NCBI GenBank assembly: GCA_001767195.1
Contig: MEKU01000019.1
Span: 64,088-128,087, forward strand
Direction: 5' to 3'
Source of the DNA: Acidobacteria bacterium RIFCSPLOWO2_02_FULL_67_21
Lineage (GTDB): Bacteria > Acidobacteriota > Vicinamibacteria > Vicinamibacterales > UBA2999
DNA: 64,000 bases
Part shown: in pieces, positions 21,268 through 60,099 of the stretch
Numbering within the stretch: the first letter of the stretch is position 1
Layout of the letters: every line of letters begins with the position of its first letter
Made by a program: the position numbers and the translations under genes
Notes under the pieces: generated by a model
What the model saw: only the letters and a program-made list of their open reading frames with translations
Told to the model about the DNA's origin: nothing
Databases searched by the model: none

Positions 21268-22472
21268 TGACGGCTACGCGTGTCCGCCAGCAGCTCCGCA
21301 TAGATGGTCGCCGTGCGGGCGGCGGTCGCCGTCCATGTGAATTGCGCAGCGCGCTGACGGCCCCGCTGCCGGAGCTCCGCGGCCAGCCCGGTGTCGGTGA
21401 GGATCCGCTCGGTCGCGGCCGCGAGCGCGGACATGTCGCCGGGCGGCACGAGGAGACCCGCCGTACCGACAACTTCCGCGACTGGTGGAATGTCGAACGC
21501 CACGACAGGAGTTCCACAGGCCATCGCCTCCAGCGGCGGCCACCCGAAGCCCTCCCAGGCGGACGGGAACACCAGGACGTCAGCGGCGTTGTACCACTCC
21601 GTGAGAAGCTGGTCCGTTGCCACGTCGCCAAGGTGCCGGAGACAGTCCGCCACGCCAAGCGTTCGGGCGAGGTGCGCCTCGTCCGGCAACAGCGGCGCGC
21701 CGACCCGCAGGAGGACCAGGTCGGGCACGCGCGGGCGCAGGCCGGCAATGGCGTGCAGGAGCGTGGCGGTGTTCTTGTAGCGCCCGGCCGTAGCCACTTG
21801 AAGCACGACGGGCGTCGTGTCCCTCAGGCCGGCTGCCGCGCGTCGGGTGGCTCTCGCATCCGGCAGAAATCTGAACGTGGCGTTCAGCCCGTTCGGCACC
21901 ACCGTGACGCGGCTCGGGTCCACGGCTGTGTACCGTTCGAGCGTCACTTTCGTGGCGGTCGAGACCGCGATGATGCGCCGTGCCTTCGTGAGGTAGGCGA
22001 TCTTCCGCCTGAAGATCCAGGCGGCTCTTGCCGACACCGGCGACGGAATCGCTCCCTGGGCGGCCAGCAGAGGAATGATGTCGTGGCACGTCACGATCGT
22101 GCGGGCGGGATCGAGGCTTCGAATGAGATGCGCGTAGCCCTGGTCGAGGATGTGGAAGACCGCGGCCGAGCGCTGTTTCAGCACACCCGGGTAGGTCACC
22201 CACCGGCACCACGCTCGATCGATTCGGCGCGCCCCGTTGGCGTCGGCGAGTCGCGACAGGTACCGGCGGTCGGGTGGCCGCTCCATCGCGATCGCGAGAC
22301 CATCGCTCGTCGACGCGCGCAGTGCGGCATGCAGTTCTTCCGCATAGCGCTTCATGCTCCGGCTGTCGTCAGAGAGCAGCCCCGGGAGCAGCAGAACGCA
22401 CCGGTTGCCTGCGCCTGCCGGGCTCACGCGGCGGCGAACGCCGCCGCGAATCGGGCGGCAATGGCGTCCCAC
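21264..22472 (-). CDS. Glycosyltransferase family 4 (GT-B)
   Basis: VFPSAWEGFGWPPLEAMACGTPVV. The GTG start and first ~24 codons lie inside direct repeat A. Confidence 0.85.
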   Translation of the reverse strand: MGRHCRPIRGGVRRRVSPAGAGNRCVLLLPGLLSDDSRSMKRYAEELHAALRASTSDGLAIAMERPPDRRYLSRLADANGARRIDRAWCRWVTYPGVLKQRSAAVFHILDQGYAHLIRSLDPARTIVTCHDIIPLLAAQGAIPSPVSARAAWIFRRKIAYLTKARRIIAVSTATKVTLERYTAVDPSRVTVVPNGLNATFRFLPDARATRRAAAGLRDTTPVVLQVATAGRYKNTATLLHAIAGLRPRVPDLVLLRVGAPLLPDEAHLARTLGVADCLRHLGDVATDQLLTEWYNAADVLVFPSAWEGFGWPPLEAMACGTPVVAFDIPPVAEVVGTAGLLVPPGDMSALAAATERILTDTGLAAELRQRGRQRAAQFTWTATAARTATIYAELLADTRSRQ

Positions 22473-22490
22473 GACAAATAGCGATGGAGC
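22401..22490. repeat. Direct repeat A (90 bp), left boundary of the low-GC cassette
   Basis: 86/90 identical to 27253-27342 by hand alignment. It encodes an orphan copy of a GT C-terminus (LHRYLSWDAIAARFAAAFAAA*). Confidence 0.9.
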
Positions 22491-27252: not shown

Positions 27253-27342
27253 CCGGTTGCCTGCGCCTGCCGGGTTCACGCGGCGGCGAACGCCGCCGCA
27301 AATCGGGCGGCAATGGCGTCCCACGAAAAATAGCGATGGAAC
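27253..27342. repeat. Direct repeat B (90 bp), right boundary of the low-GC cassette
   Basis: Covers the native last 21 codons and stop of 27276..28391 plus 23 nt downstream. 86/90 identical to 22401-22490. Confidence 0.9.
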
Positions 27343-38511: not shown

Positions 38512-38558
38512 CGACGTAGTGCCCGGATTTAGCCGGGCTGAAGCCCGGCACTACGTAC
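38512..38558. repeat. Intercistronic compound palindrome (REP-like) between wza and the initiating transferase
   Basis: ACGTAGTGCCCGG-attta-GCCGGGC-tgaa-GCCCGGCACTACGT. The inner perfect 7-bp stem competes with an outer 9-12-bp stem. Confidence 0.5.
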
Positions 38559-48765: not shown

Positions 48766-50706
48766 CTACACCCCCGTCGTCGCCGCCAGCAACCGCCGGA
48801 CGACGTCGTCGTTGACCTCGATGCGCATCCGTTCTTTCGCGTTGGCCATGTACGCGGTGAAGAAGCGGCCGCGGCGTTCGGTCACGAGCTGCTCGCGGAA
48901 CGCCTCCTTGCCCTGCCTGAGCTCGTCGGCGGTCACCTCATCGCGCTCCTCGACCCGCACGATGACGGTCGCATCGCTGGTGCCGATCGGCTCGCTCACC
49001 GCGCCCGCCGGCAGGCCGAAGGCGACTTTGTCCACCTCCGCATTCACCCCGATGTCGGGCAGTGGCGATCCGCGCGGGACGAGCTGCGTCTCTTTCGCCT
49101 CGAGGCCCTGGCTCTTGGCCGCGGCGGCGAAGTTGGCGGCGCCGCGCAGCGCGTCGGCGATCTTGGCTGCCTGCTGACGGCTCAGGTCGACGGCGCGCGC
49201 CCGAATCAGGTCCTCCCGCACGCGCTCCTTCACCCGATCGAGCGTCGGGACGTACGGCTCCCGGATGCCGGAAAGGGCGACGAACACCGGCCCTCGCGCC
49301 GACACGATCGGCCCGCGCACCTCGCCCTGCTTCAGCTGAAACGCGGTGGCGGCGATCTGCGGGGCAACGCCCAGGCCGGGCACCGGGTCGTCACGGCCGA
49401 ACTCCACCTCGGCAATCGTCAGCCCCGACTCCTTGGCGACGGCATCCAGATCCGACGGGTCGTCGATGCGGCCGGAGAGCTCCGCCGCGCGGGCGGTGAC
49501 CTGCTCGTCGGCGCGCTGCCGCTTCAACTGCTCCTCGATCTGGGCGCGCACCTCGTCGAGCGGCCTCGTCACGGCCGGCTTCTTGTCGGTGACCTTGATG
49601 ATGTGAAACCCGTACTGGGTGCGGACCAGGTCGCTCACCTGGCCGGTCTCGAGCGCGAAGGCCGCCGTCTCGAACTCGGGCACCATGCGGCCGCGCGCGA
49701 AGTAATCGAGGTCGCCGCCGGTGACCTTCGATCCCTCGTCTTCGGAGACCTTGCGCGCGAGCTCGGCGAAGTCGGCGCCCCCCTTGATCTGCTCGAGCAG
49801 CGCCTCCGCCTGCGTGCGGACCGCCGCTTCGTCCTTGCCCGCCGTGTTCAGCAGGATGTGGCTCGCGCGGATCTGCTCCGGCGTCTGAAACTGCGAGATG
49901 TTGCCGTCGTAGTACCGCTGCACGTCGGCCGCCGGCACCACGACGCGGCCCTGCACTTCATCGCGGCTGAGCAGCAGCATGCGCACCTTGCGCTGCTCGC
50001 CCACGCGGTAGTCGTTCGTGTGCGATTCGAAGTGCGCCGCCACGTCGGCGTCCGCGACGGTCACCTGGCCGCGATACGCCTCGGCGGTCAGCGCCACGAC
50101 CTGCAGCTTGACCTTCTCGTTGCGCTGCCGGAACTCGCGCTCGACTTCCTCGTCGCCGACGGTAATCCAGTCGGTGAGCGCGCCGCGCAGCTTGTCGATC
50201 CTCAGGCTGCGGCGCAGGTTCTCCTCGAAGGTGGCCTTGGTCAGCGGCGGCACCTGGCTGCGCAGCAGCAGCTCGTACCGCTGCTCGCCGATGAACCGGC
50301 CGTTCTCCTGCAGGCCGGGGATCGCGAAGATCTGCTGCGCGAGCTCCTCGTCGCTGACGCGGATGCCGAGGCGCTCGGCCTCGACGAGGGCCGCCTGCTC
50401 GTCGACCATCTGCTGCAGGATCTGCTGCTCGAGTCCCAGCTGGCGCAGGAGCTGATCGTTGATGCCGCTGCCGTACGCCGTCCGGTACGCCTGGATCTGG
50501 GCGTTGTACCGCTGGCGGAACTGGCCGGCGGTCACGGTGCGGCCCTCGACGTCGGCGACCACCTCGCCCGGCGCGGCGCCCACGCCGATCACGGTGGGGT
50601 CGTCCAGGAAGCTCGGGATGTAAAAGACGATGAACGCGAGCACGACCAGGGCGAGGCTCCACTTGAGCCACCCCTTGTGCCGGCGCATCCGGTCAAGCAT
50701 TGTCAT
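48766..50706 (-). CDS. ppiD: Periplasmic chaperone PpiD (SurA-N-like + parvulin domain)
   Basis: N-terminal anchor MLDRMRRHKGWLKWSLALVVLAFIV. Parvulin block IRASHILL..GGDLDYFARGRMVPEFETAAF..YGFHIIKV. Confidence 0.85.
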   Translation of the reverse strand: MTMLDRMRRHKGWLKWSLALVVLAFIVFYIPSFLDDPTVIGVGAAPGEVVADVEGRTVTAGQFRQRYNAQIQAYRTAYGSGINDQLLRQLGLEQQILQQMVDEQAALVEAERLGIRVSDEELAQQIFAIPGLQENGRFIGEQRYELLLRSQVPPLTKATFEENLRRSLRIDKLRGALTDWITVGDEEVEREFRQRNEKVKLQVVALTAEAYRGQVTVADADVAAHFESHTNDYRVGEQRKVRMLLLSRDEVQGRVVVPAADVQRYYDGNISQFQTPEQIRASHILLNTAGKDEAAVRTQAEALLEQIKGGADFAELARKVSEDEGSKVTGGDLDYFARGRMVPEFETAAFALETGQVSDLVRTQYGFHIIKVTDKKPAVTRPLDEVRAQIEEQLKRQRADEQVTARAAELSGRIDDPSDLDAVAKESGLTIAEVEFGRDDPVPGLGVAPQIAATAFQLKQGEVRGPIVSARGPVFVALSGIREPYVPTLDRVKERVREDLIRARAVDLSRQQAAKIADALRGAANFAAAAKSQGLEAKETQLVPRGSPLPDIGVNAEVDKVAFGLPAGAVSEPIGTSDATVIVRVEERDEVTADELRQGKEAFREQLVTERRGRFFTAYMANAKERMRIEVNDDVVRRLLAATTGV

Positions 50707-50729
50707 GGGCTGAATCCTATCGGGCTTTC

Positions 50730-50752
50730 GTAGGCGGGTCTGAAGACCCGCC
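50730..50752. repeat. REP-like hairpin in the ppiD / GGDEF divergent spacer
   Basis: GTAGGCGGGTC-tgaa-GACCCGCC: an 8-bp stem with the same GTAGG lead and GNRA-like loop style as the copies at 48725, 59496 and 38512. Confidence 0.4.
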
Positions 50753-50919
50753 TGGTGTGGGCTGTCGGCCCGCCCTGAAAACGTTCATCTTACAGGCGCA
50801 GGGGTTCAGAGTCCAAAGCCGACAGCCGTGGTAATATTCGATGCGTTTAGAAGGACTTAGCGGCATTTCACCGCAGGGTCTCATGTGCATGCCCTATTTC
50901 GTTCCCGCCCTGGCTCGCG

Positions 50920-53047
<2,128 letters not shown>

Positions 53048-53127
53048 ATTGACGGATTTACGAATTTACGAATTTACGAAATTGGTCCTGGCAAATTCGT
53101 CAATCCGTAAATCCGTCAATTCGTAAA
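53048..53127. repeat. AT-rich imperfect palindromic element, copy 1 (built from ATTGACG / ATTTACGA units)
   Basis: ATTGACGGATTTACGAATTTACGAATTTACGAAATTGG-tcctg-GCAAATTCGTCAATCCGTAAATCCGTCAATTCGTAAAT. It fills the mreB|mreC spacer, from 1 nt after the TGA to 4 nt before the ATG. Confidence 0.8.
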
Positions 53128-53131
53128 TGAC

Positions 53132-54001
53132 ATGGCTCTGCTCGATATCCGCCAGCGCACGGGCTATCTCTTCATCGCGCTGACCATCGGCCAGATCATT
53201 CTCATTTCTGCGCAGGTCAACACCGCCCGCGGCATCCCGGTCCTCGAAGCCGTCACGTTCGGCGTGTTTGCCGAGATTCAGCGGGTCGCCTCGTCCGGCC
53301 TCAGCGGCATGCGCGCCTCGTGGACCGATTACGTGGCGCTCCAGGAAGTGCGGACCGAGAACGAGCGATTGCGGGACGAGGTCGGGCGGCTGCGGGTGGG
53401 GCTTCAGCAGGAGCGCGCCCTCGCCCAGCGGTCGCGGACGCTCGAGCAGCTGCTGGAGCTGCGCACCCAGGCGGATCTGGCCACCGTGGCGGCCAACGTC
53501 ATCGCCGGCGGCGCCAGCCCGGACTTCCGGACGATGACCATCGACCGGGGCACCGGCGACGGCCTTCGCCCCGACATGGCGGTCATCGCCCCGGCCGGGG
53601 TGGTCGGCCGGATCATCACGCCCAGCGCCCGCGCGGCCAAGGTGCAGCTGCTCATCGACCGCAACGCGGCGGCGGGGGGGCTGGTGGAGCGGTCGCGGGC
53701 GCAGGGGGTCGTCGAGGGGACCGGCGGCGGCCTTCGGATGAGCTATGTCTCCGGAACCGCCGATATTCAGGTGGGCGACGCCGTGGTGACCTCCGGGATC
53801 GACGGCATTTACCCCAAGGGCTTCGTCATAGGTCAGATAGAATCTGTAGAGTGGGGGGAAGGCTCGTTCGGGGCGATCGCCATCCGGCCGGCCGTTGACT
53901 TCTCCTCGATAGAGGCGGTGCTCGTGGTGCTGACGCCGCCGGCAGCGGTCGAGGACGAGACGCCGGGCGAGAGCGCGGGAGCGGCCCCTGCCGCGCCGTA
54001 G
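53132..54001 (+). CDS. mreC: Rod-shape-determining protein MreC
   Basis: N-terminal TM, a coiled coil (ENERLRDEVGRLR), then beta domains (VVTSGIDGIYPKGFVIGQI). Confidence 0.9.
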   Translation: MALLDIRQRTGYLFIALTIGQIILISAQVNTARGIPVLEAVTFGVFAEIQRVASSGLSGMRASWTDYVALQEVRTENERLRDEVGRLRVGLQQERALAQRSRTLEQLLELRTQADLATVAANVIAGGASPDFRTMTIDRGTGDGLRPDMAVIAPAGVVGRIITPSARAAKVQLLIDRNAAAGGLVERSRAQGVVEGTGGGLRMSYVSGTADIQVGDAVVTSGIDGIYPKGFVIGQIESVEWGEGSFGAIAIRPAVDFSSIEAVLVVLTPPAAVEDETPGESAGAAPAAP

Positions 54002-54022
54002 CGCGAGAGCGCGGAGGCGGGA

Positions 54023-54523
54023 GTGAGAGCGGTCGGCGTGCTGATCGCGATCGCGATGGCGATCGCGCTGCAGACGACGCTCGCGCGATTTCTGGTGGCC
54101 GGGACGGCGGCGGTGGATCTGGTGCTCGTCGTCGTGATCTACGTCGCGCTGACGGGCGGCGCGGTCACCGGGATGCTGGCGGGAAGCTTCGCCGGCATCA
54201 TCCAGGACGCGCTCTCGAGCGGTGTGATCGGCATCGGCGGGCTGGCCAAGTTGATTGTCGGGTTTCTTGCCGGGGCGATCGGCCAGCAGTTCATCGTCAC
54301 GTCGGCGCTGCCGCGGTTTCTGACGTTCCTGGTGGCGACCGTGGTGCACGCCGCGGTGTTCATGGGGTTGTACGTGCTGCTCGGGCTCCGCTCGTTTCCG
54401 TCGCCGTGGACGGCGATCCTGAGTCAGGCGGTCGGGAATGCCGCCGTCGGCATGATCGCCTTCACGGTGCTCGAGTCGCTGCCGGGAGTCGCGGAGCGGC
54501 GGAGAGCGAAGAGAAGGATGTAG
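54023..54523 (+). CDS. mreD: Rod-shape-determining protein MreD
   Basis: 166-aa polytopic protein directly after mreC. GTG start. Confidence 0.85.
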   Translation: MRAVGVLIAIAMAIALQTTLARFLVAGTAAVDLVLVVVIYVALTGGAVTGMLAGSFAGIIQDALSSGVIGIGGLAKLIVGFLAGAIGQQFIVTSALPRFLTFLVATVVHAAVFMGLYVLLGLRSFPSPWTAILSQAVGNAAVGMIAFTVLESLPGVAERRRAKRRM

Positions 54524-54561
54524 GGGTCAGGGGGCCTCGCCTCGCCCCTTCAATTGGAACC

Positions 54562-56490
54562 ATGGCACTAACCGAAGATCGCCGGCGAATGGCCGTCCGC
54601 CTGATGGTGCTGCAGGTCAGCGCCGTCCTGGCGTTTGCCGCGCTCGCCATCAGCTTCTGGTTCCTCCAGATCGCGCAGCACCCCCGCTACCAGGAGATGG
54701 CCGAGAACAACCACCAGCGGACGCTCGCGCTGCGGGCGCCGAGGGGCGTGCTGTTCGACCGCAACGGCACGGTGCTCGTCGAGAACCGGCATTCGTTCAA
54801 CGTGTCCATCGTCCGGGAGCACACCAAGGATCTCGACCGCACGATCCGGCTCCTCTCCGCGGTCGCCGGCCTCGATCCGAAGCAGGTGCGGCAGACGGTG
54901 GAGCGCCACCGCAGCGATCCCATCTACCGGCCGATCGTGGTCGTCGAGGACGCGACGCTCGCTCAGGTGGCGGCCATCGCCGCGCGGCGGCTGGACTTCG
55001 AGCTGCCGGACGTGGTCGTCGAACAGGTGCCGACGCGCCAGTATCCGGTCGACGCGCTCGCCGCGCATCTCTTCGGCTACGTCGGCGAAGCCAGCGAGGA
55101 CCAGCTGGGCGACGGCATCACGCGCGGGGCGCTGGTCGGGCAATCGGGCGTGGAGCGCGTCTACAACAGGCTGCTCATGGGCCAGGACGGCGCCCGCGTG
55201 GTTGTGGTCAACAGCGTCGGGCGCGAGATTCGCACCATCGAGGAGATTCCGCCGAAGGAAGGCCGCCGCGTCCAGCTCACGATCGACTCCGACCTGCAGA
55301 AGGCGGCCGAGGACGGCTTCAGGCATGCGGGGTTCAACGGTGCAGCGCTCATCATGGATCCCCGCACCGGCGAAGTGCTGACGTACGTGAGCCTGCCGGC
55401 CTACGACCCCAACGACTTTGCCGGCGGCATCGACCGCGCCACGTGGGCGTCGCTCAACGCCGACGAACTGCGGCCGCTGCAGAATCGCGCGATCCAGGGC
55501 CGGTACTCGCCGGGCTCCGCCTTCAAGCTCGTGGTGGCCACCGCCGCGCTCGAGGAGGGCATCGTCACGCCGGACTTCAAGGTGAACTGCGGCGGCGGCG
55601 CCAACTTCTTCGGCCGGTATTTCCTCTGCCATCTCAAGGGCGGCCATGGCGTTGTGGACATGCGGCACGCGATTGAGAAGTCGTGCAACGTGTACTTCTA
55701 CACGCTCGGCAACATGCTGGGTGTCGATCGCATCCACAAGTGGGCCGAACGGCTCGGGATGACCGGCAAGACCGGCATCGACCTGCCCAACGAGCAGGAG
55801 AGCCTCGTCCCCTCGACCGCCTGGAAGCTCGAGCGCACCGGCGAGCGCTGGTATCCCGGCGAGACGATTTCGGTCTCGATCGGCCAGGGGCAGGTGTCGG
55901 TCACGCCGGCCGCGATGGCCATGATGATCACGACGATCGCGAACGGCGGCACCCGCGTCACGCCGCACATCGTGCGGGCCGTCGACGAGGGCGGCGGGTG
56001 GCGCATGGCCACGCCGCCGGTCGTTGCCGAGAGCATGGCCTTCCGTCCCGAGACGCTGGCGGCGCTCCATGACGGGCTCTGGATGGCGGTCAATGCCGCC
56101 GGCACCGGCGGCCGGGCGCGGATCGAGGGGCGCGACGTTGCGGGCAAGACCGGCACCGCCCAGGTGATCTCGAATCAGGGCCGGCAGGCCGCCCGGGGGT
56201 CGGAACGGGATCTGCGCGACCACGGATGGTTCGTGTTCTTCGCCCCGAAGGACAACCCTGAGATTGCAGGCGTCATCTTCGGCGAGCACAACGAGCACGG
56301 CTATCTCGGGGCGCCGATCGCCAGGCACGTGATCCAGACGTATTTCGCAAAGAAGGAAGGGCTGCCGCTGCCGGTGCTGGCGCCGCCGCCCCCGGCCGCG
56401 CCGGAACCGGACCCGGACACCGCGCCGGTCGAGATCGCGCCCGCCATTGCCGCCACGCCGGCCGCGGGCGCGGCGCCCGGCACGAACTAG
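54562..56490 (+). CDS. mrdA: Penicillin-binding protein 2 (elongasome transpeptidase)
   Basis: ATG 54562 (MALTEDRRR). The PBP dimer domain is followed by the transpeptidase motifs SPGSAFK, SCN and KTGTAQ. Confidence 0.95.
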   Translation: MALTEDRRRMAVRLMVLQVSAVLAFAALAISFWFLQIAQHPRYQEMAENNHQRTLALRAPRGVLFDRNGTVLVENRHSFNVSIVREHTKDLDRTIRLLSAVAGLDPKQVRQTVERHRSDPIYRPIVVVEDATLAQVAAIAARRLDFELPDVVVEQVPTRQYPVDALAAHLFGYVGEASEDQLGDGITRGALVGQSGVERVYNRLLMGQDGARVVVVNSVGREIRTIEEIPPKEGRRVQLTIDSDLQKAAEDGFRHAGFNGAALIMDPRTGEVLTYVSLPAYDPNDFAGGIDRATWASLNADELRPLQNRAIQGRYSPGSAFKLVVATAALEEGIVTPDFKVNCGGGANFFGRYFLCHLKGGHGVVDMRHAIEKSCNVYFYTLGNMLGVDRIHKWAERLGMTGKTGIDLPNEQESLVPSTAWKLERTGERWYPGETISVSIGQGQVSVTPAAMAMMITTIANGGTRVTPHIVRAVDEGGGWRMATPPVVAESMAFRPETLAALHDGLWMAVNAAGTGGRARIEGRDVAGKTGTAQVISNQGRQAARGSERDLRDHGWFVFFAPKDNPEIAGVIFGEHNEHGYLGAPIARHVIQTYFAKKEGLPLPVLAPPPPAAPEPDPDTAPVEIAPAIAATPAAGAAPGTN

Positions 56491-56492
56491 GC

Positions 56493-56589
56493 ATTGACGA
56501 ATTTACGAATTTACGAATTGACGTATTTGAACGCATGGACATCACGCTCTTGGCAATTCGTCAATTCGCAAATCCGTAGATCCGTCAAT
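56493..56589. repeat. AT-rich imperfect palindromic element, copy 2 (same family as 53048-53127)
   Basis: The left arm ATTGACGAATTTACGAATTTACGAATTGACGTATTTG matches the reverse complement of the right arm (CAATTCGTCAATTCGCAAATCCGTAGATCCGTCAAT) at about 31/36. The terminal CGTCAAT includes the AT of the rodA ATG. Confidence 0.8.
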
Positions 56590-57673
56590 GTTTGAGCGAA
56601 GGCTTTACCATCACATCGACTGGGCGCTGCTGCTGGCGGTGGCCGCCCTGTGCCTGCTCGGCATCACGCAGATCTACAGCGCGACCGGCGGATGGACCGA
56701 CATCGTCCAGACGCAGATCTACGCCGTGCTGCTCGGGGTGCTCGCGCTCGTGGTGTGCCTCAGCATCGACTACCGCTCGCTCGCCGACAAGTCGCACTTC
56801 ATCTACATCGCCGTCATCGCGCTGCTGGCCTGCGTGCTCTTCTTCGGGGCGGTCCGCGGAGGCTCGCGGCGCTGGATCGATCTCGACGTTTTCAACATCC
56901 AGCCGTCGGAGTTTGCGAAGGCGGCGCTGGCGCTCGTGCTGGCGAAGTTCTTCGGTGAGAGCCGCCGCGGCACGGTGACGCGCGTCGACCTGGTCGTGGC
57001 GGGCGCCCTGACGGCGATCCCGCTCGTGCTCATCGCGCAGCAGCCCGACCTCGGCACCGCGGCGACGCTCATCCCCGTGGCATTCGCGGTGGCGTACGTG
57101 GCGGGCATGCCGATGCGGCTCGTGGGCGTGCTGGCGCTCATGGGTGTGCTGGCGGCGCCCGTCGCCTGGAAGTTTGCGCTGCAGGACTATCAGAGGGAAC
57201 GCATTTCGACATTTCTCGATCCGGCGCAGGATGCCAGGGGCGCCGGGTATCAGCAGATTCAGGCCCGCATCACGGTGGGATCCGGCGGGCTCTGGGGAAA
57301 GGGATTCACTGAGGGCACGCAGGGCCAGCTGCGGTTTCTGCCCGTGGCGCACAACGACTTCATCTTCTCCGTGCTCTCCGAAGAGCAGGGGTTTGCCGGA
57401 GTGATTGTGGCGCTCGGGCTCTATTTGTTCGTCATTCTGCGTGCGCTCGAGTCGGCCCGGCTCGCCAAGGACCGGCTCGGCGCGTACCTGGTGCTGGGAG
57501 TACTGGCCAGCTTCACGTTCCAGGTGATCTACAACATCACGATGTCGGCCGGCCTGGCGCCGGTCAAGGGATTGACGCTTCCGCTCATGAGCTACGGCGG
57601 GTCCTCGATGATCGCCACCCTGGCAGGATTCGGCCTAATCCTCAACGTGCGGATGCGGCGGTTCACGAACTAA
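56588..57673 (+). CDS. rodA: Peptidoglycan glycosyltransferase RodA (SEDS family)
   Basis: 361 aa, 10 TM, FtsW/RodA/SpoVE pattern (..HNDFIFSVLSEEQGF..PLMSYGGSSM). Confidence 0.95.
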   Translation: MFERRLYHHIDWALLLAVAALCLLGITQIYSATGGWTDIVQTQIYAVLLGVLALVVCLSIDYRSLADKSHFIYIAVIALLACVLFFGAVRGGSRRWIDLDVFNIQPSEFAKAALALVLAKFFGESRRGTVTRVDLVVAGALTAIPLVLIAQQPDLGTAATLIPVAFAVAYVAGMPMRLVGVLALMGVLAAPVAWKFALQDYQRERISTFLDPAQDARGAGYQQIQARITVGSGGLWGKGFTEGTQGQLRFLPVAHNDFIFSVLSEEQGFAGVIVALGLYLFVILRALESARLAKDRLGAYLVLGVLASFTFQVIYNITMSAGLAPVKGLTLPLMSYGGSSMIATLAGFGLILNVRMRRFTN

Positions 57674-57682
57674 CCCGGCTTT

Positions 57683-57747
57683 GGGCTTCAGGCTTCAGGC
57701 TTTCGGCCGTGTTCGGCCAGAAGCCCGGCGCCCGAAGCCTGAAGCCC
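57683..57747 (+). terminator. Compound stem-loop after rodA / in the rng leader
   Basis: GGGCTTCAGGCTTCAGGCTTTCGG ... CCGAAGCCTGAAGCCC gives a 16-nt perfect complement to one register of the GGCTTCA tandem. An inner GGCCG-tgtt-CGGCC hairpin lies inside. No U-tract. Confidence 0.4.
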
Positions 57748-57858
57748 TTAGATTGGGCTCGATCATGCCGCACGTCCTCATGTTCATCCTGCGCTCGATC
57801 GCCGAGCTGTTCGGGGTGTATCTCGTGCGGCGCGCAGAGCCCGTTCGGAGCTGCGGGC

Positions 57859-59466
57859 ATGACCAAGGAGATGATCGTCTCCTCGAGCGCCCACGAGACA
57901 CGGGTCGCAATCCTCGAGGACGACCAGGTCGCCGAGATCTTCATCGAGCGCGAGCGGCAGCGCGGCGTGGTCGGCAATTTGTACAAGGGCCGGGTCTCGA
58001 AAGTGCTGCCCGGCATGCAGTCGGCGTTCGTTGAGCTCGGCCTCGAGCGCGACGGCTTTCTCTACGTCACCGACGTCATCCCCTCGACCGACGAGTTCGA
58101 TCGGTTCGAGACGGAAGAGGACGCGTCTGCCCCATCTCCCGTACGTGGGGCGGGTTCCGCCGAGGACCGCGGCTCATCCGCAGGCGGACCCGCCGGGGGC
58201 GGGCGTGGAGGCCGACGCGATCGCGACCGCGACAAAGGCCCGGAACCGAAGATCGAAGAGCTCGTCAAAGAGGGCCAGGACATCATCGTCCAGGTGGCCA
58301 AGGAGCCGCTCGGCACCAAGGGCGCGCGGCTGACCTGCCATGCCACGATGCCGGGCCGGTTCCTCGTGTTCATGCCGACGGTGGACCACATCGGCGTGTC
58401 CCGGAAGATCGATTCCCGCGACGAGCGCAGCCGGCTGCGCGGGATCGTGCGGGAGTTCCGGGAGCAGCACGGTTTCACGGGAGGCGTCATCATCAGGACC
58501 GCCGCCGCCGGCCGGCCCAAGGAAGACATCGTCGCGGATCTGAGCTACTTCCACCGGGTCTGGACCGAGATCCGCCAGAAGGCCGAGTCGTCGCGCGCGC
58601 CCGCGGTCGTCTATCAGGAGCAGAGCCTGGTCGCCAAGCTGCTTCGCGATCTGCTCACCGAGGAGTTCTCGGCGATCCGCATCGACAACGAGGTCGAATA
58701 CCGGCGTGTCTGCGAGCTGATCGAGCGCATCATGCCTGCCCTGGCGCCGCGGGTGAAGCTCTACGACAAGGAATTCCCGATCTTCGAGGAGTACGGCGTC
58801 CAGCCCGAAATCGACCGGGCCCTTCGCAGCAAGGTCTGGCTGAAATCCGGCGGGTCGATTGTCATCAACCAGACGGAAGCGCTCGTGGCGATCGACGTCA
58901 ACACGGGGCGGTACGTCGGCAAGAAGACGGCCGGACGGCTCGAAGACACGATCCTCAAGACCAACCTCGAGGCTGTGAAGGAGATCGTCCGCCAGATCCG
59001 CCTCCGCGACCTTGGCGGAATCATCGTGCTCGATTTCATCGACATGGAGGAGAAGAAGAACCGGCAGAAGGTCTTTCAGGCCGTCGAGCAGGAGCTGCGC
59101 AAGGACCGCTCGCCGTCCAAGGCGCTGCAGGTGTCGGACTTCGGGCTCGTGATCATCACCCGCAAGCGGGTCAAGCAGAGCCTCGAGCGCGTGCTGACCG
59201 AGCCGTGCCCGTACTGCGCCGGCAGCTCCGTCATCAAGTCGACGTCGACCATCTGCTACGAGATTCTGTCGGAGGTCAAGAAGATCAGCGGCGACCTCAA
59301 CGGGCAGACGCTGATCCTCCGCGTGAACCCCGACATCGCGCGCGCGCTCCGCGACGAGGAGCGCGCCGTCTTCAAGGACCTGAAGCAGTCGCTCGGGCGC
59401 GAGGTCGCCCTGCGGGCCGATGCCCAGCTGCACCACGAGCAGTTCGACCTGATGGCAGTGGGATAG
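57859..59466 (+). CDS. rng: Ribonuclease G (RNase E/G family)
   Basis: ATG 57859 (MTKEMIVSS). S1 domain GNLYKGRVSKVLPGMQSAFVELG, then the catalytic core ..AIDVNTG..GGIIVLDFIDM. A Gly/Arg/Asp-rich insert lies at nt 58090-58251. Confidence 0.9.
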   Translation: MTKEMIVSSSAHETRVAILEDDQVAEIFIERERQRGVVGNLYKGRVSKVLPGMQSAFVELGLERDGFLYVTDVIPSTDEFDRFETEEDASAPSPVRGAGSAEDRGSSAGGPAGGGRGGRRDRDRDKGPEPKIEELVKEGQDIIVQVAKEPLGTKGARLTCHATMPGRFLVFMPTVDHIGVSRKIDSRDERSRLRGIVREFREQHGFTGGVIIRTAAAGRPKEDIVADLSYFHRVWTEIRQKAESSRAPAVVYQEQSLVAKLLRDLLTEEFSAIRIDNEVEYRRVCELIERIMPALAPRVKLYDKEFPIFEEYGVQPEIDRALRSKVWLKSGGSIVINQTEALVAIDVNTGRYVGKKTAGRLEDTILKTNLEAVKEIVRQIRLRDLGGIIVLDFIDMEEKKNRQKVFQAVEQELRKDRSPSKALQVSDFGLVIITRKRVKQSLERVLTEPCPYCAGSSVIKSTSTICYEILSEVKKISGDLNGQTLILRVNPDIARALRDEERAVFKDLKQSLGREVALRADAQLHHEQFDLMAVG

Positions 59467-59522
59467 GGATTCGGGATTCGGGATTGGGGATTGGTGTAGG
59501 CCGGGGTCCTGTAGGACCCGGC
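59466..59522 (+). repeat. Tandem GGGATTS heptamers (G-quadruplex-type motif) followed by a REP-like hairpin
   Basis: GGGATTC GGGATTC GGGATTG GGGATTG (G-tracts at 59466-68, 59473-75, 59480-82 and 59486-89), then GTAGG-CCGGGGTCC-tgta-GGACCCGGC. Confidence 0.6.
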
Positions 59523-59535
59523 GGAGGCTTCGTAG

Positions 59536-60099
59536 ATGACAGACAAGGACATCATTGCTGAACGGGGCCGGTCTCTCGAGGATGAGTATTTCCGCAAGAA
59601 GGACCGGGAGCTGATCGAGAAGATGCAGCGCGCGGCGGCGACGGCACAGGCGCGCGCCGAGATGGGCGCCATGACCGGCCTCAACGATCCCGCGCTGCTG
59701 GAAGAACTGGAGGGACTCGGCTTCACGCCGGACACGGTGGGGCTGCTGCCGCTCGTCCCTGCCATCCAGGTGGCCTGGGCTGAAGGAGGAGTGACTGCAG
59801 CCGAACGCACGCTCCTCGTCAAGCTGGCCCGGGCGCGAGGTATCGCCGAGGGGACCCCCGCCGATCGTCAGCTAGGGGACTGGCTGGACCAGCGTCCGGC
59901 CGAAGAGGTGTTTGCCCGGGCGACGCGGCTCATCCGAGCCATGCTCTCGACGGGGGCACGCCAGGAAAACGCGGCCGACCTGGTGAAACACTGCGAGGCG
60001 ATCGCCGCCGCGTCAGGCGGCCTCTTTGGCGTCAACCGCGTCTCAGCCGAGGAGCGGCAGCTGCTGACGTCGCTCGCCGCCGAACTGAAAGGCCGATGA
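59536..60099 (+). CDS. TerB-like (tellurite-resistance/DjlA N-domain-like) protein
   Basis: GGAGG lies 8 nt upstream of the ATG. Two repeats of the TerB-type pattern (AWAEGGVTAAERTLLVKLA; SGGLFGVNRVSAEERQLLTSLA). Confidence 0.55.
   Translation: MTDKDIIAERGRSLEDEYFRKKDRELIEKMQRAAATAQARAEMGAMTGLNDPALLEELEGLGFTPDTVGLLPLVPAIQVAWAEGGVTAAERTLLVKLARARGIAEGTPADRQLGDWLDQRPAEEVFARATRLIRAMLSTGARQENAADLVKHCEAIAAASGGLFGVNRVSAEERQLLTSLAAELKGR

Follow-up and report, generated by a model that had tools for sequence, protein, structure and literature searches.

The stretch analysed here (the window) comprises 64,000 nucleotides of contig MEKU01000019.1 from Acidobacteria bacterium RIFCSPLOWO2_02_FULL_67_21 (positions 64,088 to 128,087) and carries on its forward strand a cell-shape operon, identified by Pfam, with the gene order GGDEF protein, MreB, MreC, MreD, PBP2, RodA and RNase E/G. 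The spacers between mreB and mreC (mreB|mreC, copy 1) and between the PBP2 gene and rodA (PBP2|rodA, copy 2) are each occupied by an AT-rich palindrome built of 8-nt units with the consensus ATTKACGR (Table 1). The two palindromes are probably copies of one dispersed non-coding repeat family of Acidobacteriota, and above all of Vicinamibacterales, which resembles REP (repetitive extragenic palindrome) and MITE (miniature inverted-repeat transposable element) sequences, is non-autonomous, has been reshaped by slippage and is tolerated where it lies.

Two palindromes at the mre junctions

The mreB|mreC spacer (53048-53131) is 84 nt long and has a GC content of 37%, in surroundings of about 67% GC. 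Its arms (53046-53075 and 53093-53122) are complementary at 93%, with the best pairing shifted by one unit, and both the AT-rich palindrome and the slipped register reported in a preliminary description of this DNA are thereby real. That description had placed the element 1 nt after the mreB stop and 4 nt before the mreC start; the element does lie in this spacer, but its first unit follows the TGA directly and its last unit ends 3 nt before the ATG. The second copy announced for the equivalent site before rodA is present as well (56491-56587), where an AT-rich palindrome fills the 97 nt from the PBP2 TAG to the rodA ATG. Its arms are 36 nt long and complementary at 86%. The rodA ATG (56588-56590) pairs with CAT at 56492-56494, and its A and T come from the last unit. 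Both copies have four units per arm, none of which contains a G-run. A two-unit probe, allowing up to 3 mismatches, gave 12 matches in the window, all within copies 1 and 2, compared to 0.03 in shuffled sequence, and the two copies are far beyond chance. RNA structure prediction, a check suggested in the preliminary description, gave stable hairpins of -34.5 kcal/mol (z = -5.6) for copy 1 and -41.2 kcal/mol (z = -5.9) for copy 2, and in neither case did any of 200 shuffles fold as well.

The absence of a Shine-Dalgarno sequence before mreC, also noted earlier, was borne out: when upstream regions were compared, GGAGG was found before mreD and before the open reading frame (ORF) at 59536, while no Shine-Dalgarno sequence was found before mreC or rodA. 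Nine contigs that represent this strain in different samples have an identical mreB|mreC spacer, as do DNA runs; no polymorphism was seen, and an apparent 5-nt spacer in L005 was rejected as an artefact of gene calling.

A dispersed family of octamer hairpins

A scan of public genomes, with one genome per species and a 23-nt pattern of three consecutive units, placed ATTKACGR arrays at no fewer than 114 loci, at unrelated junctions in many genomes, which speaks against the dedicated functional element that had been proposed. Acidobacteriota account for 50 of the 80 matches listed first, mostly through Vicinamibacterales, and single metagenome-assembled genomes (MAGs) carry several loci next to unrelated genes. 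The occurrence of the same octamer at more than 100 unrelated sites implies that a copying step must seed new loci. The distribution also supports another proposal of the preliminary description, a miniature element targeting gene junctions, although a transposition mechanism was not found. The loci that were fetched contain 69 ATTKACGR hairpins, with two or three copies within some 8-kb loci, and the hairpins are built of 3-16 units per arm, a variable loop and then the complementary units. Outside the Acidobacteriota the arrays are mostly plain and direct, with a few hairpins in Gemmatimonadaceae, Chitinophaga and one Acidimicrobiia MAG. Phages are ruled out as a vehicle by the near-absence of the pattern from viral contigs (2 matches in 2.9 million).

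According to gene calls based on the GC content of third codon positions (GC3), 58 of the 59 hairpin copies lie between genes. Their distance to the nearest stop codon has a median of 2 nt, and in 16 cases that stop is part of a unit (the TGA of ATTGA); for the nearest start codon the median is 12 nt, with 5 nt or less in 23 of 53 cases. The junctions are co-directional in 29 cases, convergent in four and divergent in four, which differs little from the background of these loci. Genes with a copy on either side (ten scanned) are ordinary and include those for ribosomal protein S11, a histidine kinase and a rhomboid protease. The S11 gene of L084 has octamer hairpins on both sides (1158-1761) and lies probably within the conserved rpsM-rpsK-rpsD operon; such a position indicates that the elements are tolerated in very highly expressed essential operons.

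The loops of different ATTKACGR copies are unrelated. Similarity between the two arms of a single element slightly exceeds that between arms drawn from different elements (0.798 versus 0.768, z ~4, with a maximum of 0.791 in 200 permutations), which fits a shared origin or arm-to-arm templating. The octamer is also not alone: 1.04 Mb of high-GC loci contain 314 arrays of period 7 or 8, of which 163 have an inverted partner within 150 nt, and these represent dozens of unit families. Hairpin families with units of 7-8 nt are numerous in these genomes, and ATTKACGR is one of them. No description of such repeats in Acidobacteria or Vicinamibacter was found in the literature, and six octamer-dimer strings gave no hit in the searchable literature.

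Turnover at the mre junctions of relatives

A metagenome scan with MreC supplied 80 related mre operons, at 62-79% identity, for comparison. Spacers of at least 40 nt were found at 39 of 74 mreB|mreC loci, the other 35 having 35 nt or less, with 0-15 nt in about half of the 74, and at 11 of 38 PBP2|rodA loci, most of the others having 0-5 nt; none occurred at the 77 mreC|mreD loci, where the genes usually overlap as ATGA. ATTKACGR hairpins fill long spacers at mreB|mreC in L124, L137, L140, L151, L154, L155 and L197, and at PBP2|rodA in L136 and L157. Other long spacers at the two junctions carry hairpins of different units (CACAGAGA, GGCAGTA/GGCAGCG, CTCCCAG, TTGTCAG, CACGAAAA, CAAATCC and GATTCTT), and two contain tandem arrays only. 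Between closely related operons, ATTKACGR hairpins at these junctions have thus come, gone or been exchanged for others. This is well illustrated by L046, a different Vicinamibacterales species whose operon is about 80% identical to that of the window: at mreB|mreC it has a ATTGACGG hairpin, the mreB TGA being part of the first unit, while its PBP2|rodA site is empty, with the sequence TAGATG. Junctions that are often empty in related operons argue against a dedicated mre function. Absence from related mre operons and a MITE-like spread, which the preliminary description had set beforehand as grounds for abandoning such a function, were thus both observed.

In the MreC tree the junction states are scattered. 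Among the nearest relatives of the window, mreB|mreC is occupied by three different unit families; in the sister group this junction is empty. These scattered states, together with the unrelated loops across clades, indicate that mreB|mreC has been colonised repeatedly. ATTKACGR is found at mreB|mreC in 10 of 21 loci where mreB ends in TGA versus one of 53 where it ends in TAG or TAA, in counts that ignore phylogeny. The right end of the element in L154 and L151 still carries a TAG, immediately ahead of the mreC ATG. Both findings suggest that the element was inserted before the old mreB stop and supplied the new one. Microhomology between gene ends and the unit (ATCGAC/ATTGAC; ACGAAC/ACGAAT) was judged to be within chance, given the 64 rotations and variants of the unit.

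Some individual junctions are of separate interest. The 26-nt mreB|mreC spacer of L161 (ACTGTCGTCAATCCGTTATTAGCAGC) looks like a remnant of the ATTKACGR hairpin kept in its closest relatives L154 and L151, which would imply a partial deletion. At PBP2|rodA of L136 (4590-4691) repeat units encode the last PBP2 codons and the TGA stop (...ATTGACGAATTGA). In L128, L148, L165, L174, L176, L188 and L189, mreB|mreC is occupied by a separate family of hairpins, about 118 nt long, that have CACAGAGA units and conserved non-repeat flanks. These hairpins are followed by a native leader of about 25 nt that is conserved (…GTGAAAGNTGCNGCGCNTTAAGCA-ATG), and the retention of this leader indicates that mreC keeps its own initiation region in these lineages.

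Fold and expression signals

Among 41 long spacers at the two junctions, whatever their unit, the minimum-energy fold is one hairpin, in which stop and start are separated by a median of 7 unpaired nt, compared to 102 nt in the linear sequence. As 7 nt is also the typical length of an empty spacer, this is the residue predicted if a whole palindrome is inserted into a tiny spacer. For 21 co-directional copies the sense strand folded better in 11 cases and the antisense strand in 9 (Wilcoxon p = 0.70), and both window copies fold better antisense; the lack of a sense-strand bias implies that G-U wobble is not exploited on the mRNA. No intrinsic terminator (stem plus U-tract) is present in either element, the AT-rich stems preceding GACAUGG or GUUUGAGC, and no sigma-70 promoter (-35 and -10 boxes at 16-18 nt spacing) was found in 50600-59700, despite the TTGACG motifs. 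Rfam 15 gave no match over either element at E <=1; its only matches were chance ones to two miRNA models, on a GGCTTCA hairpin further downstream. RNA reads came from soil metatranscriptomes sharing 10-14% of words, and their contigs cross-map on the conserved mreB of many organisms and are uninformative on the element.

Relation to known repeats

Long-unit tandem repeats and inverted pairs of them are abundant in some bacteria. The closest published analogue of the ATTKACGR element appears to be the inverted GGGAATC arrays of Xanthomonas. These heptamer arrays occupy about 185 loci per genome, mostly with four units per array, and at 70-75 loci they form inverted pairs able to fold into stem-loops; 89-93% are intergenic, near the end of the upstream ORF, and their location is largely kept between species while their length varies, with a function that is unknown (Rehm et al. 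2015, PMC4692102). Arrays of GGGGA(T/C)T occur in Nostoc (PMC4692102). The ATTKACGR element shares with the Xanthomonas type the tandem units (5-11 nt in this class, about four per array), the close pairing of opposite-strand arrays (arms 86-93% complementary, loops 17-33 nt) and the multi-locus, intergenic position near the upstream 3' end, again with several loci per genome. It differs in its 8-nt unit, which is AT-rich in a 67% GC genome, lacks G-tracts and cannot form G-quadruplexes, in its host phylum, the Acidobacteriota, and in that its arrays abut both stop and start and fill the whole spacer, the terminal unit often supplying either codon.

REP sequences and REPINs are palindromes with GTAG or CGTC tags that are associated with RAYTs (REP-associated tyrosine transposases) and have stems of 5-13 bp and a conserved unpaired tetranucleotide tag (PMC3733652, PMC3116915). 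Like them, the ATTKACGR elements are high-copy, extragenic, imperfect palindromes that would be co-transcribed in operons and often lie near 3' gene ends, where REPs have been proposed to stabilise mRNA. Their arms, however, are 30-36 nt of octamer repeats, and although CGTC occurs in every right-arm unit it is paired, and membership in the CGTC superfamily of REPs was rejected on stem length and tag position. Bacterial MITEs such as the Correia/NEMIS elements of Neisseria resemble ATTKACGR in being 80-150 bp long, intergenic and presumably co-transcribed, with terminal inverted repeats. RNase III cleaves Correia hairpins, which can change how neighbouring genes are expressed. ATTKACGR elements, unlike MITEs, have no conserved internal sequence, their arms are tandem repeats of variable number, and membership fails on target-site duplication, which in 59 copies does not rise above the control. 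A related insertion sequence was not found either, although no scan for ones with ATTKACGR ends was made.

Tandem short intergenic units are also known as the TAACTGA heptamers of Beggiatoaceae, cyanobacteria and Bacteroidetes, which often lie a few nt from start codons and have a patchy phylogenetic distribution and an unexplained spread (MacGregor 2015, PMC4679880), and as the STRR (short tandemly repeated repetitive) heptamers of cyanobacteria. TAACTGA repeats are nearly all direct, in one orientation to the gene, with a single inverted case, whereas the inverted hairpin arrangement is the rule for ATTKACGR. Taken together, the ATTKACGR element is a new octamer, AT-rich, junction-filling form of the known dispersed inverted short-unit arrays.

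Origin of the elements and alternative explanations

The formation of such elements may be envisaged as follows. A short array would be seeded at a tiny intercistronic spacer without target-site duplication, candidate routes being single-strand or hairpin transposition and microhomology-templated insertion; DDE-type cut-and-paste is unlikely, given the lack of a target duplication. Replication slippage would alter the number of units, and arm-to-arm (intrastrand) templating would keep the arms complementary. Insertions would survive only where they are harmless, that is, exactly between stop and start. As 8 is not divisible by three, a TGA or TAA in the 8-nt unit would fall in all three frames within three units, and the termini (...ATTGA on the left, TCAAT(G) on the right) could supply stop and start codons. 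In the folded RNA the upstream stop and the downstream start would return to within a few nt of each other. A terminating ribosome covers the first 12-15 nt past the stop codon. A ribosome terminating on mreB or PBP2 might melt the base of the stem and free the strand that pairs with or beside the AUG, allowing coupled initiation of mreC or rodA that is independent of a Shine-Dalgarno sequence. Translational coupling across the element could plausibly persist in this manner, as a consequence of its design and not as its purpose. Within the window the element is predicted to be a co-transcribed intercistronic hairpin, and any effect on mre expression would be a by-product; a role dedicated to mre regulation lacks support and is disfavoured.

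Several points weigh against a dispersed and tolerated repeat family. All four repeat-bearing junctions of the 64-kb window fall in the mre operon, and the frequency of long mreB|mreC spacers (39/74) could mean that a hairpin is selected there, not merely tolerated. Copy-specific loops are not predicted by a simple copy-and-paste element. Neither a transposase nor a RAYT was found between paired copies among the ten bracketed genes scanned, all of which are housekeeping genes, and neither a master copy nor a mobilising enzyme was found in the loci scanned. For direct repeats of at least 3 nt at the ends of 59 copies, the distribution is that of the control, as would be expected without target-site duplication. 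Mobility is something that we infer from distribution alone, and the finder used for gene calls in the related loci is a crude one, which recovers the genes of the window.

The concentration in one operon would fit a selected post-transcriptional device of the mre genes, that is, a stabiliser of the mreB 3' end or partial terminator, a processing site for RNase III, E or G, or a gate tying translation of mreC and rodA to termination upstream. The hairpins bridge the precise interval between stop and start codon, pairing in a stem of -41 kcal/mol takes in the rodA AUG, mreC and rodA lack Shine-Dalgarno sequences, about half of the related operons have some mreB|mreC hairpin of whatever sequence, and within the window such repeats occur at four junctions of the mre operon and nowhere else. 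Separate mreB and mreBCD transcripts are reportedly present in E. coli, in work by Wachi et al. from 2006. Such transcripts are also known from Anabaena (PMC7593598). Against this stand the occurrence of the element at many unrelated junctions, convergent and divergent ones included, the close relatives with spacers of 0-15 nt and no hairpin, sense folds that are no stabler than antisense folds, and the lack of a U-tract terminator and of any Rfam family. A device of this kind is therefore quite unlikely. The RNase site or gate for MreB:MreC stoichiometry offered in the preliminary description fares accordingly: as dedicated roles both are unsupported, with no sense-fold bias and no conservation of the junction sequence, although either might arise as a by-product, with the rodA AUG buried in a stem.

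Two further explanations were considered. The octamer array could be a periodic platform for proteins, either a nucleoid-associated or regulatory protein on DNA or an S1, Csp or Csr-like protein on RNA, the hairpin being secondary, and a platform of this type was proposed earlier for the TAACTGA repeats (PMC4679880). It would agree with a unit that is kept across many genomes and recurs as purely direct arrays in other phyla, and with arrays that often end 0-6 nt before starts, as TAACTGA repeats do (PMC4679880). Many unit sequences share one architecture, even at the same junctions, which one protein cannot explain, and arrays are equally near stops and starts and also lie between convergent genes. 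An 8-bp spacing, moreover, does not keep sites on one face of B-DNA, and we regard a binding platform as highly improbable. Alternatively, each locus could have grown in situ from a chance seed by slippage of 7-8-nt units and intrastrand template switching. Variable unit numbers, degenerate inner units, a unique loop in each copy, the absence of target-site duplication and the dozens of unit families with one architecture are all in line with such growth, and for prokaryotic repeats with long units a slippage of about 7 nt per unit was put forward in Mrazek 2007 (cited in PMC4679880 and PMC4692102). What makes it very doubtful is that the identical octamer recurs at more than 100 unrelated loci in many species, on which independent seeds would not converge, that five or more separate clades have ATTKACGR hairpins with unrelated loops at mreB|mreC, and that orthologous sites hold either a spacer of 0 nt or a full palindrome of 97 nt, intermediates not being seen.

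The ordinary reading as a dispersed, tolerated repeat is likely, but the repeated, family-independent occupation of the same stop-start junctions calls for an explanation and is open to experiment. Vicinamibacterales and other soil bacteria might have an undescribed, sequence-independent process that plants complete hairpins of 7-8-nt units precisely between stop and start. The product would be a portable stop-hairpin-start cassette, offering TGA and ATG on either strand, whose fold keeps or even enforces coupling, and unrelated unit families at mreB|mreC and PBP2|rodA would reflect selected tuning of cistron ratios in essential operons. We give this idea a small but real chance of being correct.

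These Acidobacteria offer an unusually clean natural experiment, in which the same two operon junctions are empty or filled by differing unit families in close relatives, and in which elements lie flush with stop and start codons in genes for essential proteins that are stoichiometric partners, for example PBP2 and RodA. It can be tested here whether the elements are neutral passengers, whether coupling is kept across about 100 nt, and how a whole palindrome enters a spacer of 0-4 nt without target duplication. Gene calling in Acidobacteria MAGs is affected as well, as the adjacent genes lack Shine-Dalgarno sequences and may borrow their stop or start from a repeat.

Gene context and other repeats in the window

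The window matches contigs of the Rifle-aquifer Acidobacteria MAG GCA_001767515.1. The position of rng next to the mre genes, to which the preliminary description drew attention, is ordinary mre-cluster synteny in many bacteria. The start of the PBP2 gene is ambiguous (54380-54620): the longest ORF, from 54406, overlaps mreD, and ATG codons at about 54571 and 54589 are likelier.

Table 1. Genes, codons and repeat elements of the mre operon (window coordinates)
Feature	Position	Strand	Basis or remark
mreB (MreB)	52022-53047	+	Pfam
mreB stop, TGA	53045-53047	+	Abuts first octamer; last two bases paired at predicted stem base
Copy 1, left arm: four 8-nt units, ATTGACGG then three of ATTTACGA	53048-53079	+	Sequence, repeat search
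Copy 1, loop of degenerate units (AATTGGTCCTGGCAAAT), 17 nt	53080-53096	+	Not conserved among copies
Copy 1, right arm: four complementary units, TCGTCAAT, CCGTAAAT, CCGTCAAT, TCGTAAAT	53097-53128	+	Pairing, fold
mreC start, ATG	53132-53134	+	3 nt (GAC) past last unit; no Shine-Dalgarno sequence
mreC (MreC)	53132-54001	+	Pfam
mreD (MreD)	54023-54523	+	Pfam
PBP2 gene (mrdA)	ends 56490	+	Pfam
PBP2 stop, TAG	56488-56490	+	Paired at base of copy 2 stem
Copy 2, left arm: ATTGACGA, ATTTACGA, ATTTACGA, ATTGACGT	56493-56524	+	Sequence, repeat search, pairing
Copy 2, loop	56525-56557	+	Unrelated to copy 1 loop except for degenerate unit TTGGCAAT
Copy 2, right arm: TCGTCAAT, TCGCAAAT, CCGTAGAT, CCGTCAAT	56558-56589	+	Sequence, pairing
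rodA (RodA)	56588-57673	+	Pfam
GC-rich hairpin of GGCTTCA heptamers and complements, rodA|rng spacer	57677-57750	+	Starts 3 nt past rodA stop
rng (RNase E/G)	ends 59466	+	Pfam
Tandem GGGATTC/GGGATTG heptamer array, about four units	59466-59492	+	Starts at rng stop; no inverted partner array

The GGCTTCA hairpin has the same architecture as the ATTKACGR copies with a different unit. The longest rng ORF would start at a GTG (57709) inside this hairpin, and the ATG at 57859, with GGAG upstream, is the likelier start. The heptamer array at the rng stop opens a junction (59466-59535) that continues with a GC-rich stem (GGGTCCTGTAGGACCC) and GGAGG before the ORF at 59536.

Other repeats lie elsewhere in the window. 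A search of its whole length for repeats detected an 88-nt direct repeat (22401-22488 and 27253-27340), with 97% identity between copies 4.85 kb apart. A near-perfect palindrome of 21+21 nt (ACGTAGTGCCCGGATTTAGCC / GGCTGAAGCCCGGCACTACGT; 38514-38556), without tandem units, lies in a 59-nt spacer of two minus-strand genes.

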